Shown: one piece after another, positions 3,139-32,000 of the stretch
How the letters are laid out: the number at the start of each line of letters is the position of its first letter
How positions within the stretch are numbered: the first letter of the stretch is position 1
From: Halomicrobium mukohataei DSM 12286
GTDB lineage: Archaea; Halobacteriota; Halobacteria; Halobacteriales; Haloarculaceae
Length of the DNA: 32,000 nt
Assembly: GCF_000023965.1 (NCBI RefSeq)
Contig: NC_013202.1
Span: forward strand, 510,001-542,000
Direction: 5' to 3'
Translations under genes and position numbers: made by a program
Notes under the pieces: generated by a model
What the model saw: only the letters and a program-made list of their open reading frames with translations
What the model was told of the DNA's origin: nothing
Databases searched by the model: none

Positions 3139-5118
3139 TTATCTGCTGAGGTACGTAATCTGTTCGTCCTGTGGAGCGAACAGGCCGTATCCGATGATGT
3201 CCTGCGTGCTCGGATACGTGTTGAACCCGTTGACGACGGTGTCGTCGACGACACCGACGAGCGTGCTGTGCGTACCGTAGGAGTTGGCGCTGAGTTCGAG
3301 GACGCGTTCCCAGACCGCGTTGTACCGCTCCTGTCTGAGTTCGGGATCCTGGGCCACGTCGACGCCGTATCGTGCGTCGCGCAACAGCTGGCTCAGTTCG
3401 TCGTCGTTGATGTTCTGGAAGTTACAACACTGAGCGAAGTTGTCCTGTGAGTGGACGGACTTCGCGTAGCCGTGTGGGTTGAAGCCGCCCGAGAGCCCGA
3501 TGAAAGCGAACTTGCCGTCGTCGTAGTACTCCTCGCTGAGGAGCTGGCCGATGAAGTCGAGGAACTCGTAGGTCTCCAGAGAGGCCTCGAAGTACTCCGA
3601 CCGATTGAGCGCTTCCTGGATCAGCTCGACGGTACGGACGCGGTCGTCGTTGTCGGAGTTCGTCTCCAGCTGGACCTCGATCGGGGTCTCCCAGCCATTG
3701 TCCTCGATTGCCTCTTCGACGAGCTCCGCCGCTCGCTCTTGGTCGTATTCGTTGTACTCGCGGCCGTCCTCGACGAGCTGCTCGTAGTCGTCGGTCCCGG
3801 CCCCGGCGGCGACCGGCGGCAGCGGCGTCCAAGCCGGATTTTCCCACCCGGAGAAGATGTTCTGGGCGATATTCTCACGCGGGATGAGGTGGTTGATCGC
3901 CTGTCGAACCCGCTTGTCGGTGAAGGGTTCGACCGTGACGGGGTGCTGGAGGAACGTGTAGCCGGCACCGTCGGTCGGGGCCGTCCGGAAGTCTTCGGAG
4001 TTCTGGTAGTCGTTGAGCGTGCTCGCAGTCAGCCCGTAGCTCATGTCGATCTCGCCTTCCTGGAGGGCCGCGGACCGTGAAGCGTCCTCCGAGACGAACG
4101 ATACGTCGACCTCGTCGACGACCGGGCCGTTCGGGAACTCCGAGGAGCCCTCGAACCAGTCTTTCATCTCGGTGTCGAACCAGTAGTCGTCGAAGGCGGT
4201 GAACACGACGTACTCGCCTTCCTGGAACTCGTCCAGTTCGAACATTCCGGTCCCCATCGGCGTGTTCCCCTGTCGGGGGTCCATCGCCTCGGGCGGGAGC
4301 GTCGCCGACTCGGAGGGGTAGATCGGCGCGTCGCCGAGTTCCAGCACCGCGGCCGCGTCGGGTTCCTGAATGTAGAGGTGGACGGTGTAGTCGCCGTCGG
4401 CCTGGATGTCCAGCATCGAGTCGTAGTACTGGCCCGACAGCGTCGAGTTCCGGATGCGCTCGTAGGACTCGACGACGTTGTCGGCGGTCATCTCGTTGCC
4501 GTTGTGGAACGTGACACCCTCGTGGAGGTCGAACCGGAAGTGCATCCCGTAGGTGCCATCCGCGACGGCGTCGCCGGCCTCTTCGACGGTCAGAACGCGG
4601 GCGTCGTCGCCGGACGCGGGATCGTTGTCCGGGTGTTCCAGGACGATCTGTGCGTCCGTGTCGATGACCATCGCGCCGTCTTCGGTCTCGGTGTAGGGGA
4701 CGGAGGTCATGTAGTCCGCGTAGTCGGCCGGCGATACGTCCTGTACGTCGACCTGTTCGTACGACTCGGCGAGCCACGGATAGATCTCGCCGCTCGCGTC
4801 GGTCGTCACCATCCCCTCGAAGATGAGGTTGTGGAGGATCGAAGCCGAAGCGGAGCTACTGTACGCGAAGTCGAACGAGTCCGGTCCCTCACCGATCGCG
4901 GCTCTGAACGTCCCGCCCTCTTCGATGTCGGCGGGATCGACCGTGACACGATCCTGAACGGGGTCGACACCACCGTCGCCGCCGTCGCCACCGTCACCAC
5001 CACCGCCGAGCTGATCCGAACAGCCCGCAAGTGACATTGCGCTGAGGGCAGCTGCGCTTTGGAGGACCTTACGACGCGAAATACCGGGCAAATTATCGTC
5101 CAAATTTAATTTCGACAT
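3139..5118 (-). CDS. ABC transporter substrate-binding lipoprotein, family 5 (peptide/nickel type), Tat-exported
   Basis: 659-aa very acidic ORF. The N-terminus ISRRKVLQSAAALSAMSLAGCS is a twin-arginine signal plus a lipobox Cys. It is the first gene of the transporter operon. Confidence 0.9.
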   Translation of the reverse strand: MSKLNLDDNLPGISRRKVLQSAAALSAMSLAGCSDQLGGGGDGGDGGDGGVDPVQDRVTVDPADIEEGGTFRAAIGEGPDSFDFAYSSSASASILHNLIFEGMVTTDASGEIYPWLAESYEQVDVQDVSPADYADYMTSVPYTETEDGAMVIDTDAQIVLEHPDNDPASGDDARVLTVEEAGDAVADGTYGMHFRFDLHEGVTFHNGNEMTADNVVESYERIRNSTLSGQYYDSMLDIQADGDYTVHLYIQEPDAAAVLELGDAPIYPSESATLPPEAMDPRQGNTPMGTGMFELDEFQEGEYVVFTAFDDYWFDTEMKDWFEGSSEFPNGPVVDEVDVSFVSEDASRSAALQEGEIDMSYGLTASTLNDYQNSEDFRTAPTDGAGYTFLQHPVTVEPFTDKRVRQAINHLIPRENIAQNIFSGWENPAWTPLPPVAAGAGTDDYEQLVEDGREYNEYDQERAAELVEEAIEDNGWETPIEVQLETNSDNDDRVRTVELIQEALNRSEYFEASLETYEFLDFIGQLLSEEYYDDGKFAFIGLSGGFNPHGYAKSVHSQDNFAQCCNFQNINDDELSQLLRDARYGVDVAQDPELRQERYNAVWERVLELSANSYGTHSTLVGVVDDTVVNGFNTYPSTQDIIGYGLFAPQDEQITYLSR

Positions 5119-5532: not shown

Positions 5533-6795
5533 ATGCAACCCACCCAGCGCGGTGTCTCACGGCGCGAGTTCGTCAAGGCGGCCGTGGCCATCGGCGGGTC
5601 GGCCGCGCTGTCGGCCTGTCTCGAGCGAGAGTCACCGGACCTGGCGACCGGAGACCCGTCGTCCGTCCCCGACCGCCAGCACGCCTGGGACGAGGCGTTG
5701 CCACGAGACGACCACGGAAACGTCCGAATCCCTCGTCACCACGTCCTCCTGCTCGTCGAGTACAGTGAGACCGGCGTCCCCGACGACGACGCGCGCGAGA
5801 CCGTCGAAGCGGCGTTCCGCTCGCTCGAACGGGCCTACCCGTGGAGCAACGAGGGGCTACTCTTTACCGCGGGCTATGCCCCCGCGTACTTCGACCGATA
5901 CGACGCCGGCCCCGACGGCGTCGCGCTGCCAGCGCCCACGGCACTGGCCCCGTTCGAAGACCCGGAACTCGACGAACCAGACGCGGTGATACACCTCACC
6001 AGCGACTACGGGAGCGTCGTCCTGGGGGCCGAACAGGCCCTGGTGGGCGAACGGTCGACGCTCAACGGCGTCGACGTGTCCGGCTTCGGAGAGGTCTTCG
6101 ACCGCGTGGACAAGCGAACCGGGTTCGTCGGCGACGGCCTCCCCGCGGAGAACCAGGACGTGGACGGGATTCCGGACGACGAGCCCGTCGACGAGGACGC
6201 ACCGCTGTTCATGGGCTTCGAGTCCGGCTTCGAGAAGAACCAGGCCAGCGAGGACGGCGTCACGATCGAGAGCGGCCCCTTCGCCGGTGGGACGACCCAG
6301 CACCTCTCGAAGATTCGGCTCCACCTCGACCAGTGGTACAATCAGGACAGTCGCTCCCAGCGCGTCGCGAAGATGTTCTGCCCGGCCCACGCGGAGGACG
6401 ATCGCGTCGAGGGCGTCGGCGAGAACCTCGGCGACGACAATCAGGTCGGCGACTGCGTCGACGACATCGAGGCCGACGCCGGCAGCCACGGGATCGTCGG
6501 TCACGCCCAGAAGAACGCCCGCGCACGCGACGAGGACGATACGCCGGTCCTGTTGCGCCGGGACTTCGACTCGACCGACGACGGCGCGGCCGGCGTCCAC
6601 TTCCTCTCGCTGCAGTCGTCGGTCGCAGACTTCGTCGCGACGCGAGCGGCGATGAACGGCAGCGACGTGAGCGAGGAGTCGAGCGTCGGAACGCGACTCA
6701 ACAACGGGATCCTCCAGTACATGACCGTCCAGCGGCGGGGCAACTACCTCGTCCCGCCGCGCTCGTCGCGTGCGCTGCCACGGCCCAGCCCGTAG
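5533..6795 (+). CDS. Tat-exported DyP-type (EfeB-like) peroxidase
   Basis: 420-aa ORF with a twin-arginine signal (GVSRREFVKAAVAIGGSAALSAC). The C-terminal half has DyP/EfeB-like blocks (GIVGHAQKNARAR, PVLLRRDFDSTD, GVHFLSLQSSVADFV). The family call is from motif memory only. Confidence 0.7.
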   Translation: MQPTQRGVSRREFVKAAVAIGGSAALSACLERESPDLATGDPSSVPDRQHAWDEALPRDDHGNVRIPRHHVLLLVEYSETGVPDDDARETVEAAFRSLERAYPWSNEGLLFTAGYAPAYFDRYDAGPDGVALPAPTALAPFEDPELDEPDAVIHLTSDYGSVVLGAEQALVGERSTLNGVDVSGFGEVFDRVDKRTGFVGDGLPAENQDVDGIPDDEPVDEDAPLFMGFESGFEKNQASEDGVTIESGPFAGGTTQHLSKIRLHLDQWYNQDSRSQRVAKMFCPAHAEDDRVEGVGENLGDDNQVGDCVDDIEADAGSHGIVGHAQKNARARDEDDTPVLLRRDFDSTDDGAAGVHFLSLQSSVADFVATRAAMNGSDVSEESSVGTRLNNGILQYMTVQRRGNYLVPPRSSRALPRPSP

Positions 6796-20093: not shown

Positions 20094-20339
20094 CTCCGTC
20101 AGAACTGACCCCCCAACTCTCTCTCCCCCCTCTCGACGTTCGAGAGCGACGGTGACGCTTCGAGCACCACCGGTCGACGTTGCGTGAGGCTGCCGTCGGT
20201 CACTACCGCACGAGCTTCGTCACGCTGTGACAGCAGGAGATTTCACGGACAGACAGCCACCGCTACGGAGGACATTGCCACGAGACGAGCCAGCAAACGC
20301 CAGTACGACGGACAGTTGGGCGTGTGTGCTGCTGGGGAG

Positions 20340-27643: not shown

Positions 27644-28252
27644 ATGCGCGATCCGCTCCGGGCGGGCGTCGCGATCTACAACGAGGGCCGGTACCACGCG
27701 GCCCACGACGCCTGGGAGGACCACTGGCTCGACCTGTCTCGGGGGACCGACGACGAGCGGCTGCTCCACGGGCTGATCCAGTTCACCGCGGTCGTCCACC
27801 ACCTCGACGACGGAAACTACTCCGGGGCCACAGGGCTGGCCGAAAGCGCGGCGGCGTATCTCGCCGACCTGCCGGCGGCGTACCGCGGCGTCGAACTGGA
27901 CGCCGTCCGGTCGTTCCTCGGTCGCGTCGCGACGGCTCCCCGGGAACTGACGCCGGACGACGCGCCGCCGCTGGTCTACGAGGGCCGGCGGTTGACCTAC
28001 GACGATCTGGACTTCGAGGCGACGGCCGTCGCCGCGAGAGTGCTGGCCGAGGGCGACGACGAGCACGCCGTCGAGGCCGGCGTCGAATACGCCCGCGAGG
28101 AGGTCGCCGCCGACGAGAGCGGCACCTACACCGGACTGGTCTTCGCGTTCGTGCGCGAGCGCGACCGCCGGCCGATCGTCACGACCAGACTCGGCGAGCA
28201 CGTACAACGGCGCGAACACCGAGAATCGGACGTGAACGGGCTGTTCGAGTGA
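27644..28252 (+). CDS. DUF309-domain protein
   Basis: The ATG at 27644 gives MRDPLRAGVAIYNEGRYHAAHDAWEDHWL...LLHGLIQFTAVVHH, the DUF309 signature. The track start at 27518 overlaps the divergent PhyH gene. Confidence 0.75.
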   Translation: MRDPLRAGVAIYNEGRYHAAHDAWEDHWLDLSRGTDDERLLHGLIQFTAVVHHLDDGNYSGATGLAESAAAYLADLPAAYRGVELDAVRSFLGRVATAPRELTPDDAPPLVYEGRRLTYDDLDFEATAVAARVLAEGDDEHAVEAGVEYAREEVAADESGTYTGLVFAFVRERDRRPIVTTRLGEHVQRREHRESDVNGLFE

Positions 28253-28404
28253 TACTGCCGGCTGGAAGTCCGTACAGAACTTCGCGGCCCCGTGGTCGCG
28301 AATGTCTCGAAGCAGTGATAGCCGGCAGTGTGAGACGGGTCACTGTCGCCGCGCTCCCGGTCGACCGCGCACGCTCGTCTCCTTCGAGAAGATTCTTGTG
28401 AACC

Positions 28405-28427
28405 GCCTCGGGGTCAAGCCCCGAGGC
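28405..28427. repeat. Subterminal IS hairpin on the tnpB-proximal side (RE)
   Basis: GCCTCGGGG-TCAAG-CCCCGAGGC, a 9-bp stem starting 11 nt beyond the tnpB stop. Confidence 0.8.
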
Positions 28428-28437
28428 TTCCCGTGGT

Positions 28438-29712
28438 TTAATCAGACACACCCATCCGACCATCGGCCTGATAGCCTCGAACGGTCGAATGGGTCACGGT
28501 CGGGGCGTCCACGGCCCCCGATGCCTGCCGTCGCACCTTCCGAACAACGGGAAGGCTGTTGAGAGCAGGCACATTCCAATCGAGTTTCTTCACGCCTTTC
28601 ACGGCGATGTTGACGCTTGCACTACGGTCGCTGTGGTCTTGATGCTCGCAGGACTTGCACTCGAACCGCTTTTTGTTTCGATTCGCTCGCTCTGTATGCC
28701 CACACATCGGACACCGCTGACTCGTATATTCGGGATTGATCCACGCAGTCGGGATACCCTCAAACGACGCCTTGTACGACGTGTAGTATTGGAGGGCGCG
28801 GAACGGGAGGTGGTGCAAGCGTCGGTTCATCCGCGTCCCGTAGTCGATACTGTCGCGCATCTCTTTGAGGTCTTCAAAGACAATGCACGACTTCTCGAAC
28901 TGCTGGCTCCACTCTACGATGTGTCGAGACACCTTGTGGAGGCGGTCGCGGACAAACCGTTCTTCGCGTCCTTCGAGCGTGTCGTGGATGCTGTCCTTCC
29001 CCGCGTTCTGGACGCGCTTTCGCATCGTGAAGTAGCGGTGGCGCTCGAACTTGATTTCGGGGAAGTCAATAACCAACGTGCGCTTGACGCCATCTCCGGA
29101 AAGTGCGGTGAGAGCCACGTTGTCCTCGTTCACGTCCACACCCACGACAGTCCGTGAGTCTTCCTTGTCCCGAACGGTCTGCTCGGTGTTGGTGACGTTG
29201 ACGTGCAACTCGGCGTCGTCGTTGTGGAACAGGGCTTCCGCCGTCCCAATTTTCCACTCGTCGCTCGTGAGCGCGGTCTTGAGAATGTCGAGGTGGGCGT
29301 CACTCCCGGTGAGAAAGCCCTTGACGTGCTTGTACGGCTCCGTGCTGATACGGAACGCCACGCCGCCATCGTCGGTGAGCGACAGGTTGTACCCCTCCTC
29401 ATAGTTCGCACGAAGCGGGTACGCGCCGTCCTTGGTGTGGCTGGGTTGGCTGAAGTCGTCGTACTCGTAGTAGTTCTCCATCGCGCCGAGCGCCTTGGCG
29501 ACGACGCGCTGTGTCGTGTTCTTCACGAGGTCAGCGTCATCAGCCACACAGTCAGGAGTGGTGTCCCAGTCCACGCCTTCTTTCGCGAGGCGGATGGTTT
29601 CGTTGTACACCGAGCGGGCTTCAAGCGTGGCGTCGTACAACAGGCTCTCGTTGTCACTCTGGATGTCGAGTTGGAAGTCTAGCGTCTTGACGAGAGCCTG
29701 TGCCGTGGTCAT
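28438..29712 (-). CDS. tnpB: TnpB (IS605 OrfB-type RNA-guided endonuclease)
   Basis: 424-aa ORF. RuvC triad candidates are VGVDVNEDN, IVFEDLKEM and HSDRSASVNIA. The zinc finger is CPMCGH...CKSCEH. The frame is intact. Confidence 0.95.
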   Translation of the reverse strand: MTTAQALVKTLDFQLDIQSDNESLLYDATLEARSVYNETIRLAKEGVDWDTTPDCVADDADLVKNTTQRVVAKALGAMENYYEYDDFSQPSHTKDGAYPLRANYEEGYNLSLTDDGGVAFRISTEPYKHVKGFLTGSDAHLDILKTALTSDEWKIGTAEALFHNDDAELHVNVTNTEQTVRDKEDSRTVVGVDVNEDNVALTALSGDGVKRTLVIDFPEIKFERHRYFTMRKRVQNAGKDSIHDTLEGREERFVRDRLHKVSRHIVEWSQQFEKSCIVFEDLKEMRDSIDYGTRMNRRLHHLPFRALQYYTSYKASFEGIPTAWINPEYTSQRCPMCGHTERANRNKKRFECKSCEHQDHSDRSASVNIAVKGVKKLDWNVPALNSLPVVRKVRRQASGAVDAPTVTHSTVRGYQADGRMGVSD

Positions 29713-29864
29713 TCTTCGTCTTGTTCGGTGGGTTCTGAAGTTCGGACGACTTTCACATCTGCTCCACGCCAGCGTTTAGGGACGGTGACATGGGCGCTGT
29801 TCCCGAACGGCTTGACTTCACCGTCGAGAACTTCTTCGCCGTCGATCTCAAAGCGATTCGCCAT
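29709..29864 (-). CDS. Small transposon-encoded protein, DUF2080 / AbrB-SpoVT-like (51 aa, below the ORF-track cutoff)
   Basis: My translation is MANRFEIDGEEVLDGEVKPFGNSAHVTVPKRWRGADVKVVRTSEPTEQDEE*. The KPFGNS..V.VPK.W.G..V motif matches my memory of DUF2080. Its stop overlaps the tnpB start (ATGA). Confidence 0.7.
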   Translation of the reverse strand: MANRFEIDGEEVLDGEVKPFGNSAHVTVPKRWRGADVKVVRTSEPTEQDEE

Positions 29865-29870
29865 ACCTGC

Positions 29871-29889
29871 GTATATCCTTTGGATATAC
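29871..29889. promoter_or_regulatory. Palindromic double TATA-like element between the divergent IS genes (bidirectional promoter and/or operator)
   Basis: GTATATCC-TTT-GGATATAC is a perfect 8-bp inverted repeat. It lies 7 nt from the small-ORF start (29864) and 29 nt from the tnpA ATG (29918). Confidence 0.5.
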
Positions 29890-29917
29890 TTAACTGTGCT
29901 GGTGGAGTAGGTTCGAT

Positions 29918-30367
29918 ATGGGTGAGAAGCGGTCGAATCACACGGTGTACAACGTCAACTACCATTTCGTGTGGTGTCCGAAGTCAAGCAAAGCGAAGCT
30001 TTGCGTACCTCGCGGGATCGAAGATCCCGCTCAGTATCGCTACACGATTCTCGAACCAATCGAGGATTCGCTGGAAGCGAGTTTCCGCGATGTGTGCGAC
30101 GAGTACGGTTACGAGATACTATCGCTACATATTTCGCCCGATCACGTACACTTGTTCCTATCAGCTCACCCGAAGTACGGGCCGAGCGAGATTGTACGGA
30201 CAATCAAGAGCATCACGGCACGGGAGATGTGGGAACAGCACGAACCGTTCTTGGAGGAGTACCTGTGGGGCGGTGGATTTTGGGAGGAATCGTACTACGT
30301 GGGGACGGCAGGCGATGTTTCGACCGACACGATTGAGCAGTATATCGAGCGAACGGAACACGTTTAG
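29918..30367 (+). CDS. tnpA: IS200/IS605 TnpA (Y1 HUH transposase) carrying a 17-aa in-frame insertion
   Basis: 149 aa with YHFVWCPK...YRYTIL, the HUH motif DHVHLFL and the catalytic-Tyr region ESYYVGTAG. The conserved CPKYR block is split by SSKAKLCVPRGIEDPAQ. Confidence 0.9.
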   Translation: MGEKRSNHTVYNVNYHFVWCPKSSKAKLCVPRGIEDPAQYRYTILEPIEDSLEASFRDVCDEYGYEILSLHISPDHVHLFLSAHPKYGPSEIVRTIKSITAREMWEQHEPFLEEYLWGGGFWEESYYVGTAGDVSTDTIEQYIERTEHV

Positions 30368-30386
30368 CGGAGTGTACGGCCTTCAC

Positions 30387-30408
30387 CCTCGGGGTCAAGC
30401 CCCGAGGC
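30387..30408. repeat. Subterminal IS hairpin on the tnpA-proximal side (LE)
   Basis: CCTCGGGG-TCAAG-CCCCGAGG plus C, identical to 28406-28427, starting 20 nt beyond the tnpA stop. Confidence 0.8.
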
Positions 30409-30453
30409 ACTCGGCCTGCTCCGCCTGTAGACTGCCGGTGTAATCGAGACGCT

Positions 30454-30699
30454 ATGTCAGTCCTATCGACAGCAGACGAGGGGAAGTTCCTGATGGACAA
30501 CGAAGCCGAACAGATCGGCGTCGTCACCGAAGTCGATCCCGACGAGCAGGTGGCCTACGTCGAACCGGAGCCCGGCATCGCCGAGAGCGTGATACAGGGC
30601 TTTGGCTTCGGGAGCGCCGACGAAGACGACATCGAGGTACCAGCCGACTCCGTCGAGACGGTCACCGACACGGAGCTTCGGGTCGCGACCGATCTGTGA
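30454..30699 (+). CDS. Small acidic hypothetical protein (possibly PRC-barrel-like)
   Basis: 81-aa ORF. GKFLMDNEAEQIGVVTEVDPDEQVAYVEPEPGI resembles haloarchaeal PRC-barrel proteins, but the family call is weak. Confidence 0.5.
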   Translation: MSVLSTADEGKFLMDNEAEQIGVVTEVDPDEQVAYVEPEPGIAESVIQGFGFGSADEDDIEVPADSVETVTDTELRVATDL

Positions 30700-30711
30700 G
30701 GCCATCGAACC

Positions 30712-30735
30712 CTACAACCGTCCGTATGAGGGGTG
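30712..30735 (+). repeat. Solo end of the ~80-nt palindromic element (partial copy 3)
   Basis: CTACAACCGTCCGTATGAGGGGTG matches the reverse complement of 9249-9272 (CTACAACTGTCCGTATGAGGGGTG) at 23 of 24 positions. Confidence 0.7.
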
Positions 30736-30753
30736 CGGCGTTCGAGGTGGAGG

Positions 30754-30996
30754 CTACTGTGTCCACCTGATTTCGTACTCGAGTTCGTACCGCTGCTCGC
30801 CGCTGTCCGAGTCCGTGAGTCGTTCGAGTTCGACCTCGAACCGGGGCTGCTCTGGAACAGTGACGCGCTGTTCCGCCGTGTCGCTCGCTAACGTGACGTG
30901 CCCCGAGTCGATCTGATCGGCCGCGTCCCGCAACGCGCGAGCGATTTCGGCTCTCGGGCTCTGTTCCTCGGTTTTGAATAGTTGTTCTTCTGGCAT
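30754..30996 (-). CDS. Amphi-Trp domain protein
   Basis: MPEEQLFKTEEQSPRAEIARALRDAADQIDSG.VTL.....RVTVPEQPRFEVELER......EQRYELEYEIRWTQ follows the layout of that small family from memory. The ATG at 30996 is preferred over the track GTG at 31002. Confidence 0.65.
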   Translation of the reverse strand: MPEEQLFKTEEQSPRAEIARALRDAADQIDSGHVTLASDTAEQRVTVPEQPRFEVELERLTDSDSGEQRYELEYEIRWTQ

Positions 30997-31111
30997 CAGC
31001 ACACACTACGTCCCCGACCGGCATATAGATGTTCTTAGGTTGATGATTTGTCGGTGGATTTGCGGTCCCGATACCGGCCGCTGTTGACGCCGGAGACAGA
31101 GAGCCCGTATC

Positions 31112-31189
31112 ATACGGACCGTTGTAGCGATGTACTGGTCGTCTATCCCGTGGCGACGATCGCCGGTACGCGACGACAACGTTCCGTAT
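31112..31189. repeat. ~80-nt palindromic element bounded by inverted repeats, copy 2
   Basis: ATACGGACCGTTGTAG (31112-31127) ... CGACAACGTTCCGTAT (31174-31189), with an inner hairpin at 31136-31143 / 31155-31162. It aligns end to end with the reverse complement of 9257-9337. Confidence 0.7.
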
Positions 31190-31600
31190 CAGCCGTCAGT
31201 TTCGACGCGCTCCTCGCCGTCGAAGTGCGCGGAGTTGTCCCGGGGTTCGTAGCCGAGCGCCTCTTTGGCCCGCTCCAGGGAGTAGTACTTGCGATCGTTG
31301 TCGGAGACACCGACAGGCTCGCTACGCTCGCCTGTCGAGCCCTCGCTCGCTTCGCTCGCGAGGATGCCGTAGACGATATCGGTACCGGCTGGGATCACGT
31401 CGGGTCGGCGACGCGCTCCTCGCCGTCGAAGTGCGCCGAGTTGTCCTGGGGATCGTAGCCCAGAACCTCCTTCGCGCGCTCGATGGAGTAGTACTTGCGA
31501 TCGTTGTCGGAGACACCGACAGGCTCGCTACGCTCGCCTGTCGAGCCCTCGCTCGCTTCGCTCGCGAGGATGCCGTAGACGATATCGGTACCGGCTGGGA
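31189..31600 (-). repeat. Two tandem 206-bp units, each duplicating the 3' end of the adjacent epimerase gene
   Basis: Units 31189-31394 and 31395-31600 each begin (on the plus strand) with a stop-codon complement TCA. They repeat the gene tail found at 31601 to about 31745 and end in the same ~100 nt. Confidence 0.9.
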
Positions 31601-32000
31601 TCACGTCGGGTCGGCGACGCGCTCCTCGCCGTCGAAGTGCGCCGAGTTGTCCTGGGGTTCGTAGCCCAGAACCTCCTTCGCGCGCTCGATGGAGTAGTAC
31701 TTGCGATCGTTGTCGGAGATGCCGTAGACGATCTCGAAGTCGTAGTCGGCGAGGAGGGCTCGCTCGTGGATATGAGCGCAGTCGCGGTAGGAGAGCCACA
31801 TCGCCTGGCCGCGCTCGTAGTCGATCGGCGGATGGCCCTTCGTGAGGTTGCCGATGCGGACGTTGCACACGTCGATCCCGTACTCGTCGTGGTAGTACCG
31901 GCCGATGATCTCTCCGGTGGCCTTCGAGACGCCGTAGAGGTTCCCCGGGCGGGGGAACTCGGAGCCGTCGAGTCGGAAGTCGTCGTGGGTGCGGTACAGG
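31601..32000 (-). CDS. NAD-dependent epimerase/dehydratase family protein (C-terminal part; the 5' end is outside the window)
   Basis: The frame is open to the window edge and reads ...PGNLYGVSKATGEIIGRYYHDEYGIDVCNVRIGN... (the SDR YxxxK motif), ending ...NSAHFDGEERVADPT*. Confidence 0.85.
   Translation of the reverse strand, partial: LYRTHDDFRLDGSEFPRPGNLYGVSKATGEIIGRYYHDEYGIDVCNVRIGNLTKGHPPIDYERGQAMWLSYRDCAHIHERALLADYDFEIVYGISDNDRKYYSIERAKEVLGYEPQDNSAHFDGEERVADPT

Follow-up and report, generated by a model that had tools for sequence, protein, structure and literature searches.

The window analysed here, 32,000 nucleotides (nt) of Halomicrobium mukohataei DSM 12286 (NC_013202.1, positions 510,001 to 542,000), contains an insertion sequence (IS) of the IS200/IS605 type, the transposase gene tnpA of which is split by 51 nt that fold into two perfect hairpins with GAA triloops. 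These 51 nt are probably a copy of a non-coding double-hairpin mobile element of 49-51 nt, termed A-type here, which inserted into tnpA at the DNA level. Alignment with related alleles demonstrates, at the level of sequence, that the segment is an insertion and not a lineage-specific loop of the protein, and the copies collected from genomes and metagenomes demonstrate its recurrence, site specificity, structural constraint and limitation to haloarchaea. Among the readings offered by the original prediction, which was made from the letters of the window, that of a tiny palindromic mobile element is the one borne out, on the grounds of empty alleles, recurrence at unrelated sites and an element sequence decoupled from the divergence of the host genes.

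The insert begins at a codon boundary inside the conserved CPK^YR motif of TnpA (the caret marks points of insertion throughout) and consists of TCAA (29984-87), hairpin 1, GTACCTC, hairpin 2 and TCAG (30031-34), with the termini TCAAGC...GCTCAG. The predicted splitting of this motif by two perfect GAA-triloop hairpins is upheld by the sequence, by the fold and by homologues of 132 amino acids (aa). As single-stranded DNA, the 51 nt fold at minimum free energy into the two hairpins and nothing else (-15.5 kcal/mol; z -3.47 relative to shuffled sequence), and the RNA fold contains the same two hairpins only (-24.7 kcal/mol, z -2.74). Each hairpin occurs once in the window, where 0.03-0.06 matches are expected by chance, and adjacent pairs of triloop hairpins number five in the window versus none or one in shuffled sequence, three of the five being the A-type insert and two 57-nt copies of another family (E-type). 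Other adjacent pairs, imperfect and GC-rich, lie at 6414-6465 and 20130-20172, and an isolated triloop hairpin with a 9-bp stem lies in GC-rich sequence at 2553-2573; all of these may be due to chance.

As the window copy has a length divisible by three and no stop codon, the open reading frame (ORF) of tnpA reads through it. The Pfam profile Y1_Tnp (PF01797) matches this ORF (E 8.6e-35) from residue 39 only, at profile position 14, so that the N-terminal strand of TnpA is separated by the insert. In an AlphaFold model built with 75 homologues (mean predicted local distance difference test score, pLDDT, 72.9), the HUH core is confident, beta1 spans residues 13-21 and the inserted residues 23-39 follow directly at a pLDDT below about 55; according to the model, the window copy would thus give a TnpA with a floppy loop of 17 residues right after beta1. 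Sequence relatives of this TnpA with solved structures are those of Sulfolobus, ISDra2 and IS608.

Uninterrupted alleles, which the original prediction had proposed to look for by alignment with other tnpA copies, do exist. Proteins of 132 aa without exactly residues 23-39 are 92-94% identical to the window TnpA outside the insert and read ...HFVWCPKYRH..., and taking the 17 residues out of the window copy gives the matching ...HFVWCPK^YRYTIL.... An insert of any kind is absent from 85 of the 120 best homologue clusters; the loop is not a feature of every family member, and the segment does have other occurrences. Homologues of 149 aa, including ISNph7 of Natronomonas pharaonis, have SSK(A/S)K(L/I)CVPRGIxDPAQ at this place, and comparison of the DNA shows two differences between the N. 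pharaonis copy and that of the window, a compensatory change in stem 1 (GCAAAGC/GCTTTGC to GCAAATC/GATTTGC) and another second loop. Alleles of tnpA can differ in insert state yet be 96-99% identical outside the inserts, as are P0003 (A-type insert) and P0020 (no insert) at 96.2%. In the ISH22 clade, element-free TnpA are 95-97% identical to interrupted ones, far more numerous and predominant in the protein database (cluster P0123 alone has 220 members on 88 contigs), so that the filled copies are a minority and probably young.

The same tnpA family has received three further in-frame insert families, B, C and D, each likewise with two perfect triloop hairpins, and genes with combinations of B, C, D and A inserts are found. 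In one tnpA, present at L035 ~4620-4715 and L054 ~780-870 (Halalkalirubrum salinum), inserts B and A stand side by side, 5 nt apart (...VWC-[B]-PK-[A]-YR...). The ISH22-clade protein P0187 (145 aa) has a different insert of 17 residues, SRRTRGPADLAELCSAQ, at the CPK^YR boundary, which suggests that more element families use this site, and in P0206 another insert lies slightly further upstream, by a few residues.

A degenerate A-type pattern searched in one genome per species (185,579 species) gave 72 matches, 48 of which have a palindromic first stem; these 48 are all haloarchaeal, except for one in a metagenome-assembled genome labelled Pacearchaeota, and the non-palindromic ones are bacterial chance matches in about the number expected. 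With 52 further palindromic matches from metagenomes, about 100 copies of 49-51 nt were found, at one to three per genome, and all of them are located in parts of IS200/IS605 elements, in the three contexts a, b and c of the table. Context a, in tnpA, spans at least four clades ranging from 92% down to 38-45% identity to the window TnpA. Context b lies in the omega-RNA/right-end region, where the element is antisense to tnpB and the joined flanks match contiguous empty sites in many plasmids, in which the empty form is the rule, and one filled site. In context c, near the N-terminus of tnpB, removal restores ...QRLMRY^NDEDGF.... A conserved hairpin of the target, GTGTGGTG...CGCTACAC, which encloses the tnpA site, was considered as a general rule and discarded, as it is present in the clade of the window but not in the ISH22 clade.

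The tnpB gene of Halorientalis salina (L029 3643-5132) contains three different mini-elements of 49, 51 and 49 nt, at aa 42^43, 113^114 and 211, with two more just upstream of the interrupted gene. It is otherwise collinear with the intact 447-aa TnpB of Halobacterium salinarum (79-93% identity per aligned segment, about 85% overall), with no other lesion over 1.3 kb. Two other species (L019, L080) have only the first of the three elements.

The sequence of the element does not follow that of its host gene. A-type identity stays at about 0.90 while the identity of the downstream tnpA DNA drops from 0.93 to 0.56, and the elements are about 90% identical throughout host TnpA that diverge to about 40% aa identity. 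The 51-mer of the window recurs unchanged in Halegenticoccus soli (L063), the TnpA of which is about 51% identical, and one allele is common to ISH22-clade genes and a gene of the clade of the window; conversely, L018 and its 93%-identical sister L036 have different alleles. Conserved instead is the structure. Watson-Crick pairing is observed at 452 of 461 stem positions in 32 distinct variants, and the perfect stems, three for hairpin 1 and five for hairpin 2, are connected by double-sided changes, from which the hairpin-1 variants GCAAATC and GCGAATC arise. The termini (TCAAGC / GCT(C/T)AG) are fixed, as is the centre (GTACNTC). GNA predominates on the plus strand in loop 1 and on the minus strand in loop 2 (TTC, TCC, GGA, TCT or TTT in copies elsewhere), and loops occur flipped as reverse complements (GAA/TTC, GGA/TCC). 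C-GNA-G triloops are unusually stable DNA mini-hairpins; their stability and the flipping of loops suggest that the constraint acts on the DNA. Around the central GTAC, the left unit (YYRA followed by a hairpin) and the right unit are mirror images, and the whole is a pseudo-symmetric inverted repeat of a unit about 21 nt long. All copies of the element terminate in ..AG^. Among 52 copies, the flank preceding the element likewise terminates in ..AG^ in 46, in ..AA^ in three and in ..TG^ in three, so that a target duplication, if any, amounts to the dinucleotide AG at most.

Among the alternatives, a lineage-specific surface loop of TnpA encoded by DNA that is palindromic by chance, or a cis-regulatory attenuator evolved in place, would suit the window copy, which is in frame, stop-free and modelled as a loop after beta1. 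The ORF is, however, broken in more than half of the tnpA-borne copies, the same DNA stands in non-coding and antisense contexts and the loop codons are unconstrained; a protein loop is ruled out by the insert-free alleles and the copies with stops or frameshifts, which leaves this alternative effectively refuted, and the attenuator listed by the original prediction found no support. A single ancient insertion, spread by homologous recombination or gene conversion via the conserved HFVWCPK^YRH flanks and not by repeated transposition, seems rather unlikely. It would agree with the site being the most conserved DNA of tnpA, with partly clade-specific A-type alleles and with the coexistence of filled and empty copies within lineages, and haloarchaea recombine readily. 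Yet clades of 40-50% identity share only about 10 nt of homologous flank downstream, and as A-type elements also occur at the tnpB N-terminus and in the omega-RNA region, sites without tnpA homology, non-homologous insertion is required there at the least. Within tnpA, recombination from one IS copy to another may nevertheless contribute to the spread.

A somewhat poorer prospect still is that the elements are terminal-only palindrome-associated transposable elements (PATEs), that is the fused left and right ends of a core-deleted IS200/IS605-type transposon as in the 52-bp HqIRS46 and the ISHwa23 remnants, mobilised by the cognate Y1 TnpA to a position 3' of a short target. PATEs of 52 bp are documented in the haloarchaeon Haloquadratum (PMC3119063), and A-type elements belong to the same size class, have two hairpins with 4-nt outer tails, show no target duplication beyond the possible AG, share ..AG^ between flank and element end and are exclusively associated with IS200/IS605. 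PATEs, though, have palindromes that match known IS605-type elements and by definition no inverted terminal repeats (PMC3119063), whereas no likeness of the A-type hairpins to IS palindromes was found in 467 kb of related loci, and no full-length IS with A-type hairpins was seen. The stems of the element are perfect over 7-8 bp with triloops, those of the IS ends seen here GC-rich with loops of 4-5 nt, and the targets are specific sites on a 12-nt scale or hairpin loops and no ubiquitous tetranucleotide. The A-type elements are not PATEs because of their inverted symmetry and unrelated hairpins.

The alternative that the element is an intervening sequence or switch, precisely taken out so that tnpA and tnpB stay functional and acting as a safety catch on transposase expression, is unlikely too; the original prediction had listed an excisable or spliced segment among its readings. 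An in-element TAG or a length of 49 nt is found in 30 of 53 tnpA-borne copies: in the genome set, 13 copies have a TAG, five are 49 nt long and about 10 of 28 are open, and in metagenomes about 13 of 25 are open. The TAG arises where loop 1 is GTA (GCG TAG), as in copies of Natronococcus amylolyticus and Natronolimnohabitans innermongolicus, or where the element ends in GCT TAG. Once the element is taken out precisely, the ORF is whole again in 26 of 26 tnpA and 3 of 3 tnpB copies, those with frameshifts or stops included, and the Halorientalis tnpB has three mini-elements and otherwise no lesion. The ratio of non-synonymous to synonymous substitutions (dN/dS) in the tnpA coding sequence downstream is 0.04-0.28, even between two interrupted copies, with 0.15-0.28 in a clade whose four sampled members all have the 49-nt TTAG allele and 0.09-0.24 in a clade with the GTA (stop) loop. 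Free loops, which tolerate even TAG, next to fixed termini, centre and stems are what is expected of a recognised element that is never translated, and alleles are partly clade-specific. Low dN/dS fails as proof of removal, however, since the abundant element-free alleles of 95-97% identity allow recent insertion into active genes to explain it. The same allele across tnpA clades and unlike alleles in sister genes speak for turnover and not for long residence, and the inserts B, C and D, like most A copies in tnpA, have lengths divisible by three, which suggests selection for read-through that would be pointless if the element were removed.

With regard to routes of removal, an archaeal bulge-helix-bulge (BHB) intron was rejected, as no such motif is formed at any of the three junction registers given by the AG repeat, inspected by hand and by RNA fold; the strands CCGA/GCUC, UCCG/CGCU and GUCC/CCGC do not pair. 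Bypass inserts such as the 50-nt gap of T4 gene 60 and the mitochondrial byps resemble A-type elements in being mobile hairpin-forming coding inserts of about 50 nt that may hold stops or shift the frame and the exact skipping of which restores the ORF. A-type elements, on the other hand, have no matched codons (take-off AAG or AAA; pre-landing triplet CAG or TAG), are not preceded in tnpA by a take-off codon that a stop follows directly, and also occur in non-coding and antisense contexts, and we know of no evidence of translational bypassing in archaea. If removal took place, it might proceed by TnpA-like or replication-slippage excision from the DNA, in some copies of the polyploid genome, by a BHB-independent RNA reaction or by a ribosomal hop, and would provide a reversible on/off catch on transposase and TnpB that homes to the most conserved motif like inteins and homing introns. 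The double-hairpin elements would on this view be smaller than any intervening sequence known from archaeal protein genes, and tnpA and tnpB would be rebuilt by their precise removal, which is unlikely.

With respect to mobilisation, a mobile DNA element as the preferred explanation would make A-type one of several haloarchaeal families of 45-57 nt that land preferentially in IS200/IS605 parts, namely tnpA, tnpB, the omega-RNA/right-end region and the loops of IS end palindromes, and in effect a parasite of an IS that is itself a parasite, with a transposase modified or inactivated as the putative net effect. Given its pseudo-two-fold symmetry, A-type resembles a miniature inverted-repeat element without target duplication; once circularised, it would be a symmetric dumbbell of two hairpins joined by linkers of 7-8 nt. 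It would move as structured, probably single-stranded DNA through an enzyme supplied in trans; a candidate is an HUH/Y1 transposase that would cut after ..AG and have a dumbbell-like minicircle as its substrate. The A-type layout (4 nt, hairpin, 7 nt, hairpin, 4 nt) is compatible with IS608-type mobilisation. The shared ..AG^ ends, the hairpin-loop targets, the restriction to IS200/IS605 targets and the dumbbell symmetry would favour a defined strand transfer on structured DNA, and the single-stranded circle stage of IS200/IS605 elements could explain the preference for IS targets.

Several points weigh against this explanation. No mobilising enzyme was identified for A-type. Its hairpins are unlike the end palindromes CCTCGGGG TCAAG CCCCGAGG of the host IS, which also deprives the suggestion of the original prediction that the hairpin was captured by the transposase itself of support, and the inferred cleavage of the host IS after ..AC^ (tnpB strand) does not match the ..AG^ of the element; both differences speak against the resident TnpA as the mobilising enzyme. 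The 4 nt 5' of hairpin 1, where an IS608-type guide would be placed, have no simple complementarity to the target; neither this nor the cleavage site offers a fitting explanation, which is not decisive, the pairing being non-canonical even in IS608. Insertion at the same codon boundary in clades of 38-50% identity could result from recombination between IS copies instead of transposition. As the search pattern was specific to the A-type subfamily, the restriction to IS parts holds for that subfamily only. Finally, copies with TAG or frameshift reside in otherwise intact genes with low dN/dS, and the view of these genes as dead fits only if the insertions are recent.

The closest known relatives in kind are the small mobile repeats (SMRs) of Haloquadratum walsbyi (SMR-A/SMR-B; HqIRS40-43, HqIRS55), which are non-coding, 80-110 bp long with one of 296 bp, have inverted terminal symmetry and cause no target duplication (Dyall-Smith et al., 2011; PMC3119063). 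They strongly favour IS605-type transposons and PATEs, near-terminal palindromes included, sometimes at the same position in either orientation, and were reported mostly outside transposase ORFs; their mobilisation was termed "enigmatic", and inactivation of IS605-type elements was proposed as their role (PMC3119063). A-type elements are likewise too short for a transposase, of inverted symmetry and with ends unlike those of the host IS, and the target preference is the same, with A-type in tnpA, tnpB and the omega-RNA region and a further family (C/D-type) in the loop of the IS palindrome. Unlike SMRs, the present elements are of 45-57 nt, half the size or less, with just two triloop hairpins, and A-type hits one tnpA codon boundary across many genera. 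A-type may accordingly be viewed as a very small variant of IS605-targeting SMRs, which were compared by description only. A description of double-hairpin elements of 45-57 nt was not found in the literature searched, coverage of which was incomplete, so that an earlier one is possible.

Repetitive extragenic palindromic sequences (REPs) and their composites, bacterial interspersed mosaic elements (BIMEs) and REP doublets forming hairpins (REPINs), share with A-type the short inverted hairpin pairs with a conserved tetranucleotide at the hairpin foot, stems kept by compensatory change and a tie to Y1 HUH (IS200-like) enzymes. REPs are extragenic, present in tens to hundreds of copies per genome and tied to a single-copy domesticated REP-associated tyrosine transposase (RAYT, TnpA-REP), and to our knowledge no RAYT is known in haloarchaea. 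A-type elements are not REPs or REPINs, because they are low in copy number and located inside IS elements; a high-copy REP-like repeat was also rejected on the finding of a single triloop-hairpin cluster in 50 kb of Natrinema DNA. They are not classical miniature inverted-repeat transposable elements because there is no target duplication (2 nt at most) and no parent transposon was identified. The likeness to Rickettsia palindromic elements (RPEs) drawn by the original prediction stands in part. Palindromic DNA is present in frame in coding genes and would be translated in the A-type copy of the window, in B, C and D and in an E-type copy in hemG. RPEs, in contrast, are about 100-150 bp long and scattered over many unrelated genes, while A-type elements, of 49-51 nt, keep to three IS200/IS605 sites and frequently break the ORF of tnpA; an open frame is a property of the window copy and not of the family.

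The elements reveal a layer of hyper-parasitism on IS200/IS605/TnpB elements, which are central to work on RNA-guided nucleases, with sequences of about 50 nt that find the same codon boundary of a transposase across many haloarchaeal genera. They provide a concrete, sequence-defined substrate for the SMR mobilisation noted as enigmatic in 2011, account for a class of "truncated" and "frameshifted" tnpA and tnpB annotations in haloarchaeal genomes and offer natural variants, TnpA with loop insertions and omega-RNAs with extra hairpins. Should the elements be removable after all, they would represent a genetic switch, or an intervening sequence, of a novel type.

The host IS of the window has three genes, with tnpA divergent in orientation from tnpB and the DUF2080 gene, and its boundaries were inferred from where five related copies cease to match (GTGAAC... 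...CTGTAGA). Its omega-RNA-like region matches Rfam sot2652, the sense-overlapping transcript and omega-RNA of haloarchaeal tnpB. The score of 47 bits does not reach the gathering score of 61, as would suit a divergent omega-RNA belonging to the tnpB of the window. An E-value-based Rfam scan of 27800-32000 returned nothing at the 51-nt insert, only sot2652 and one chance snoRNA match. The 53-nt spacer between the DUF2080/tnpB genes and the divergent tnpA contains, at 29871-29889, an 8-bp palindrome without mismatches around a TTT loop (GTATATCC TTT GGATATAC), which is possibly an operator or promoter element.

Table. Features of the window (window positions) and sites of double-hairpin inserts in tnpA, tnpB and related loci.
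Feature	Position	Strand	Length or basis
ISNph7-like IS200/IS605 element, approximate extent	28398..30431	.	inferred boundaries
Near-terminal palindrome CCTCGGGG TCAAG CCCCGAGG, tnpB/omega-RNA end, uninterrupted	28406..28426	+	
tnpB (RNA-guided nuclease) of host IS	28438..29712	-	424 aa; PF07282 match
omega-RNA-like region, 3' end of tnpB	28452..28574	-	Rfam sot2652
Small DUF2080 gene, upstream of tnpB	29709..29864	-	ORF and Pfam
tnpA (Y1 HUH transposase, IS200 type)	29918..30367	+	149 aa including 17 inserted residues (23-39)
A-type double-hairpin mini-element, between Lys (AAG) and Tyr (TAT) codons of tnpA	29984..30034	+	51 nt
Hairpin 1, GAA loop (C-GNA-G type; contains GCGAAGC)	29988..30004	+	7-bp stem GCAAAGC/GCTTTGC
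Hairpin 2, GAA loop	30012..30030	+	8-bp stem GCGGGATC/GATCCCGC
Second near-terminal palindrome, tnpA end of IS	30387..30407	+	identical to 28406..28426
E-type double-hairpin insert, second copy, other unit of 206-nt tandem repeat	31308..31364	-	
E-type double-hairpin insert, family distinct from A-type	31514..31570	-	57 nt
A-type context a	tnpA K^Y boundary, ...TGGTGYCCNAAR^...^TAYCG...		
A-type context b	small stem-loop ATCCC-GAG^CGTT-GGGAT between tnpB stop and right-end palindrome (omega-RNA region)		
A-type context c	tnpB N-terminal site, aa 42^43	antisense	
B insert	after VWC of TnpA		45 nt
C insert	at EILS^LHISP of TnpA		54 nt
D insert	at HPK^H of TnpA		54 nt
C/D-type in palindrome loop, forward	L003 3491-3545, L008 3545-3601, L010 976-1030, L016 1355-1409, L027 2004-2057, L046 5373-5427		
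C/D-type in palindrome loop, reversed	L001 3534-3586, L026 2510-2565, L040 83-134		

The second double-hairpin insert of the window that had been predicted, of E-type, is real and has a twin. Both are held by the extra units of a 206-nt tandem repeat (31203-31719, 2.5 copies, 96% matches) in which the 3' end of an epimerase-like minus-strand gene is duplicated anew, each with a stem, TC.TC (GA.GA on the coding strand) and GC-triloop-GC; the insert would add LASEASEGSTGERSEPVGV, and the intact gene end (~31724) is without E-type. A similar element lies in frame, encoding 18 aa (VRASEASAGSSRAERSDG), in the annotated intact protoporphyrinogen oxidase gene hemG of Halorussus vallis (L085 1490-1545), and another is intergenic on a Haloarcula plasmid (L086 1500-1560). 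Unlike A-type, E-type thus seems to land in ordinary genes, as RPEs do.

The C/D-type of 54 nt (5'-TGGTTCGAG...TCATC...CCGTACGA-3') splits the loop of the near-terminal palindrome of the IS at GGGGTCAAG^...^CCCC and can have either orientation, the forward one across L003-5, L008, L010, L016, L027 and L046. Both palindromes of the window are uninterrupted. Downstream of purF in Natrinema thermotolerans (L012 2880-3050 = L087 43140-43310), a long hairpin and four consecutive triloop hairpins stand between convergent genes. The last pair of this array is A-like (GGCGGTGC-GAA-GCGCCGCC GACCTC GCGGGATC-GAA-GATCCCGC TCAG), with a different first hairpin and a context outside any IS.

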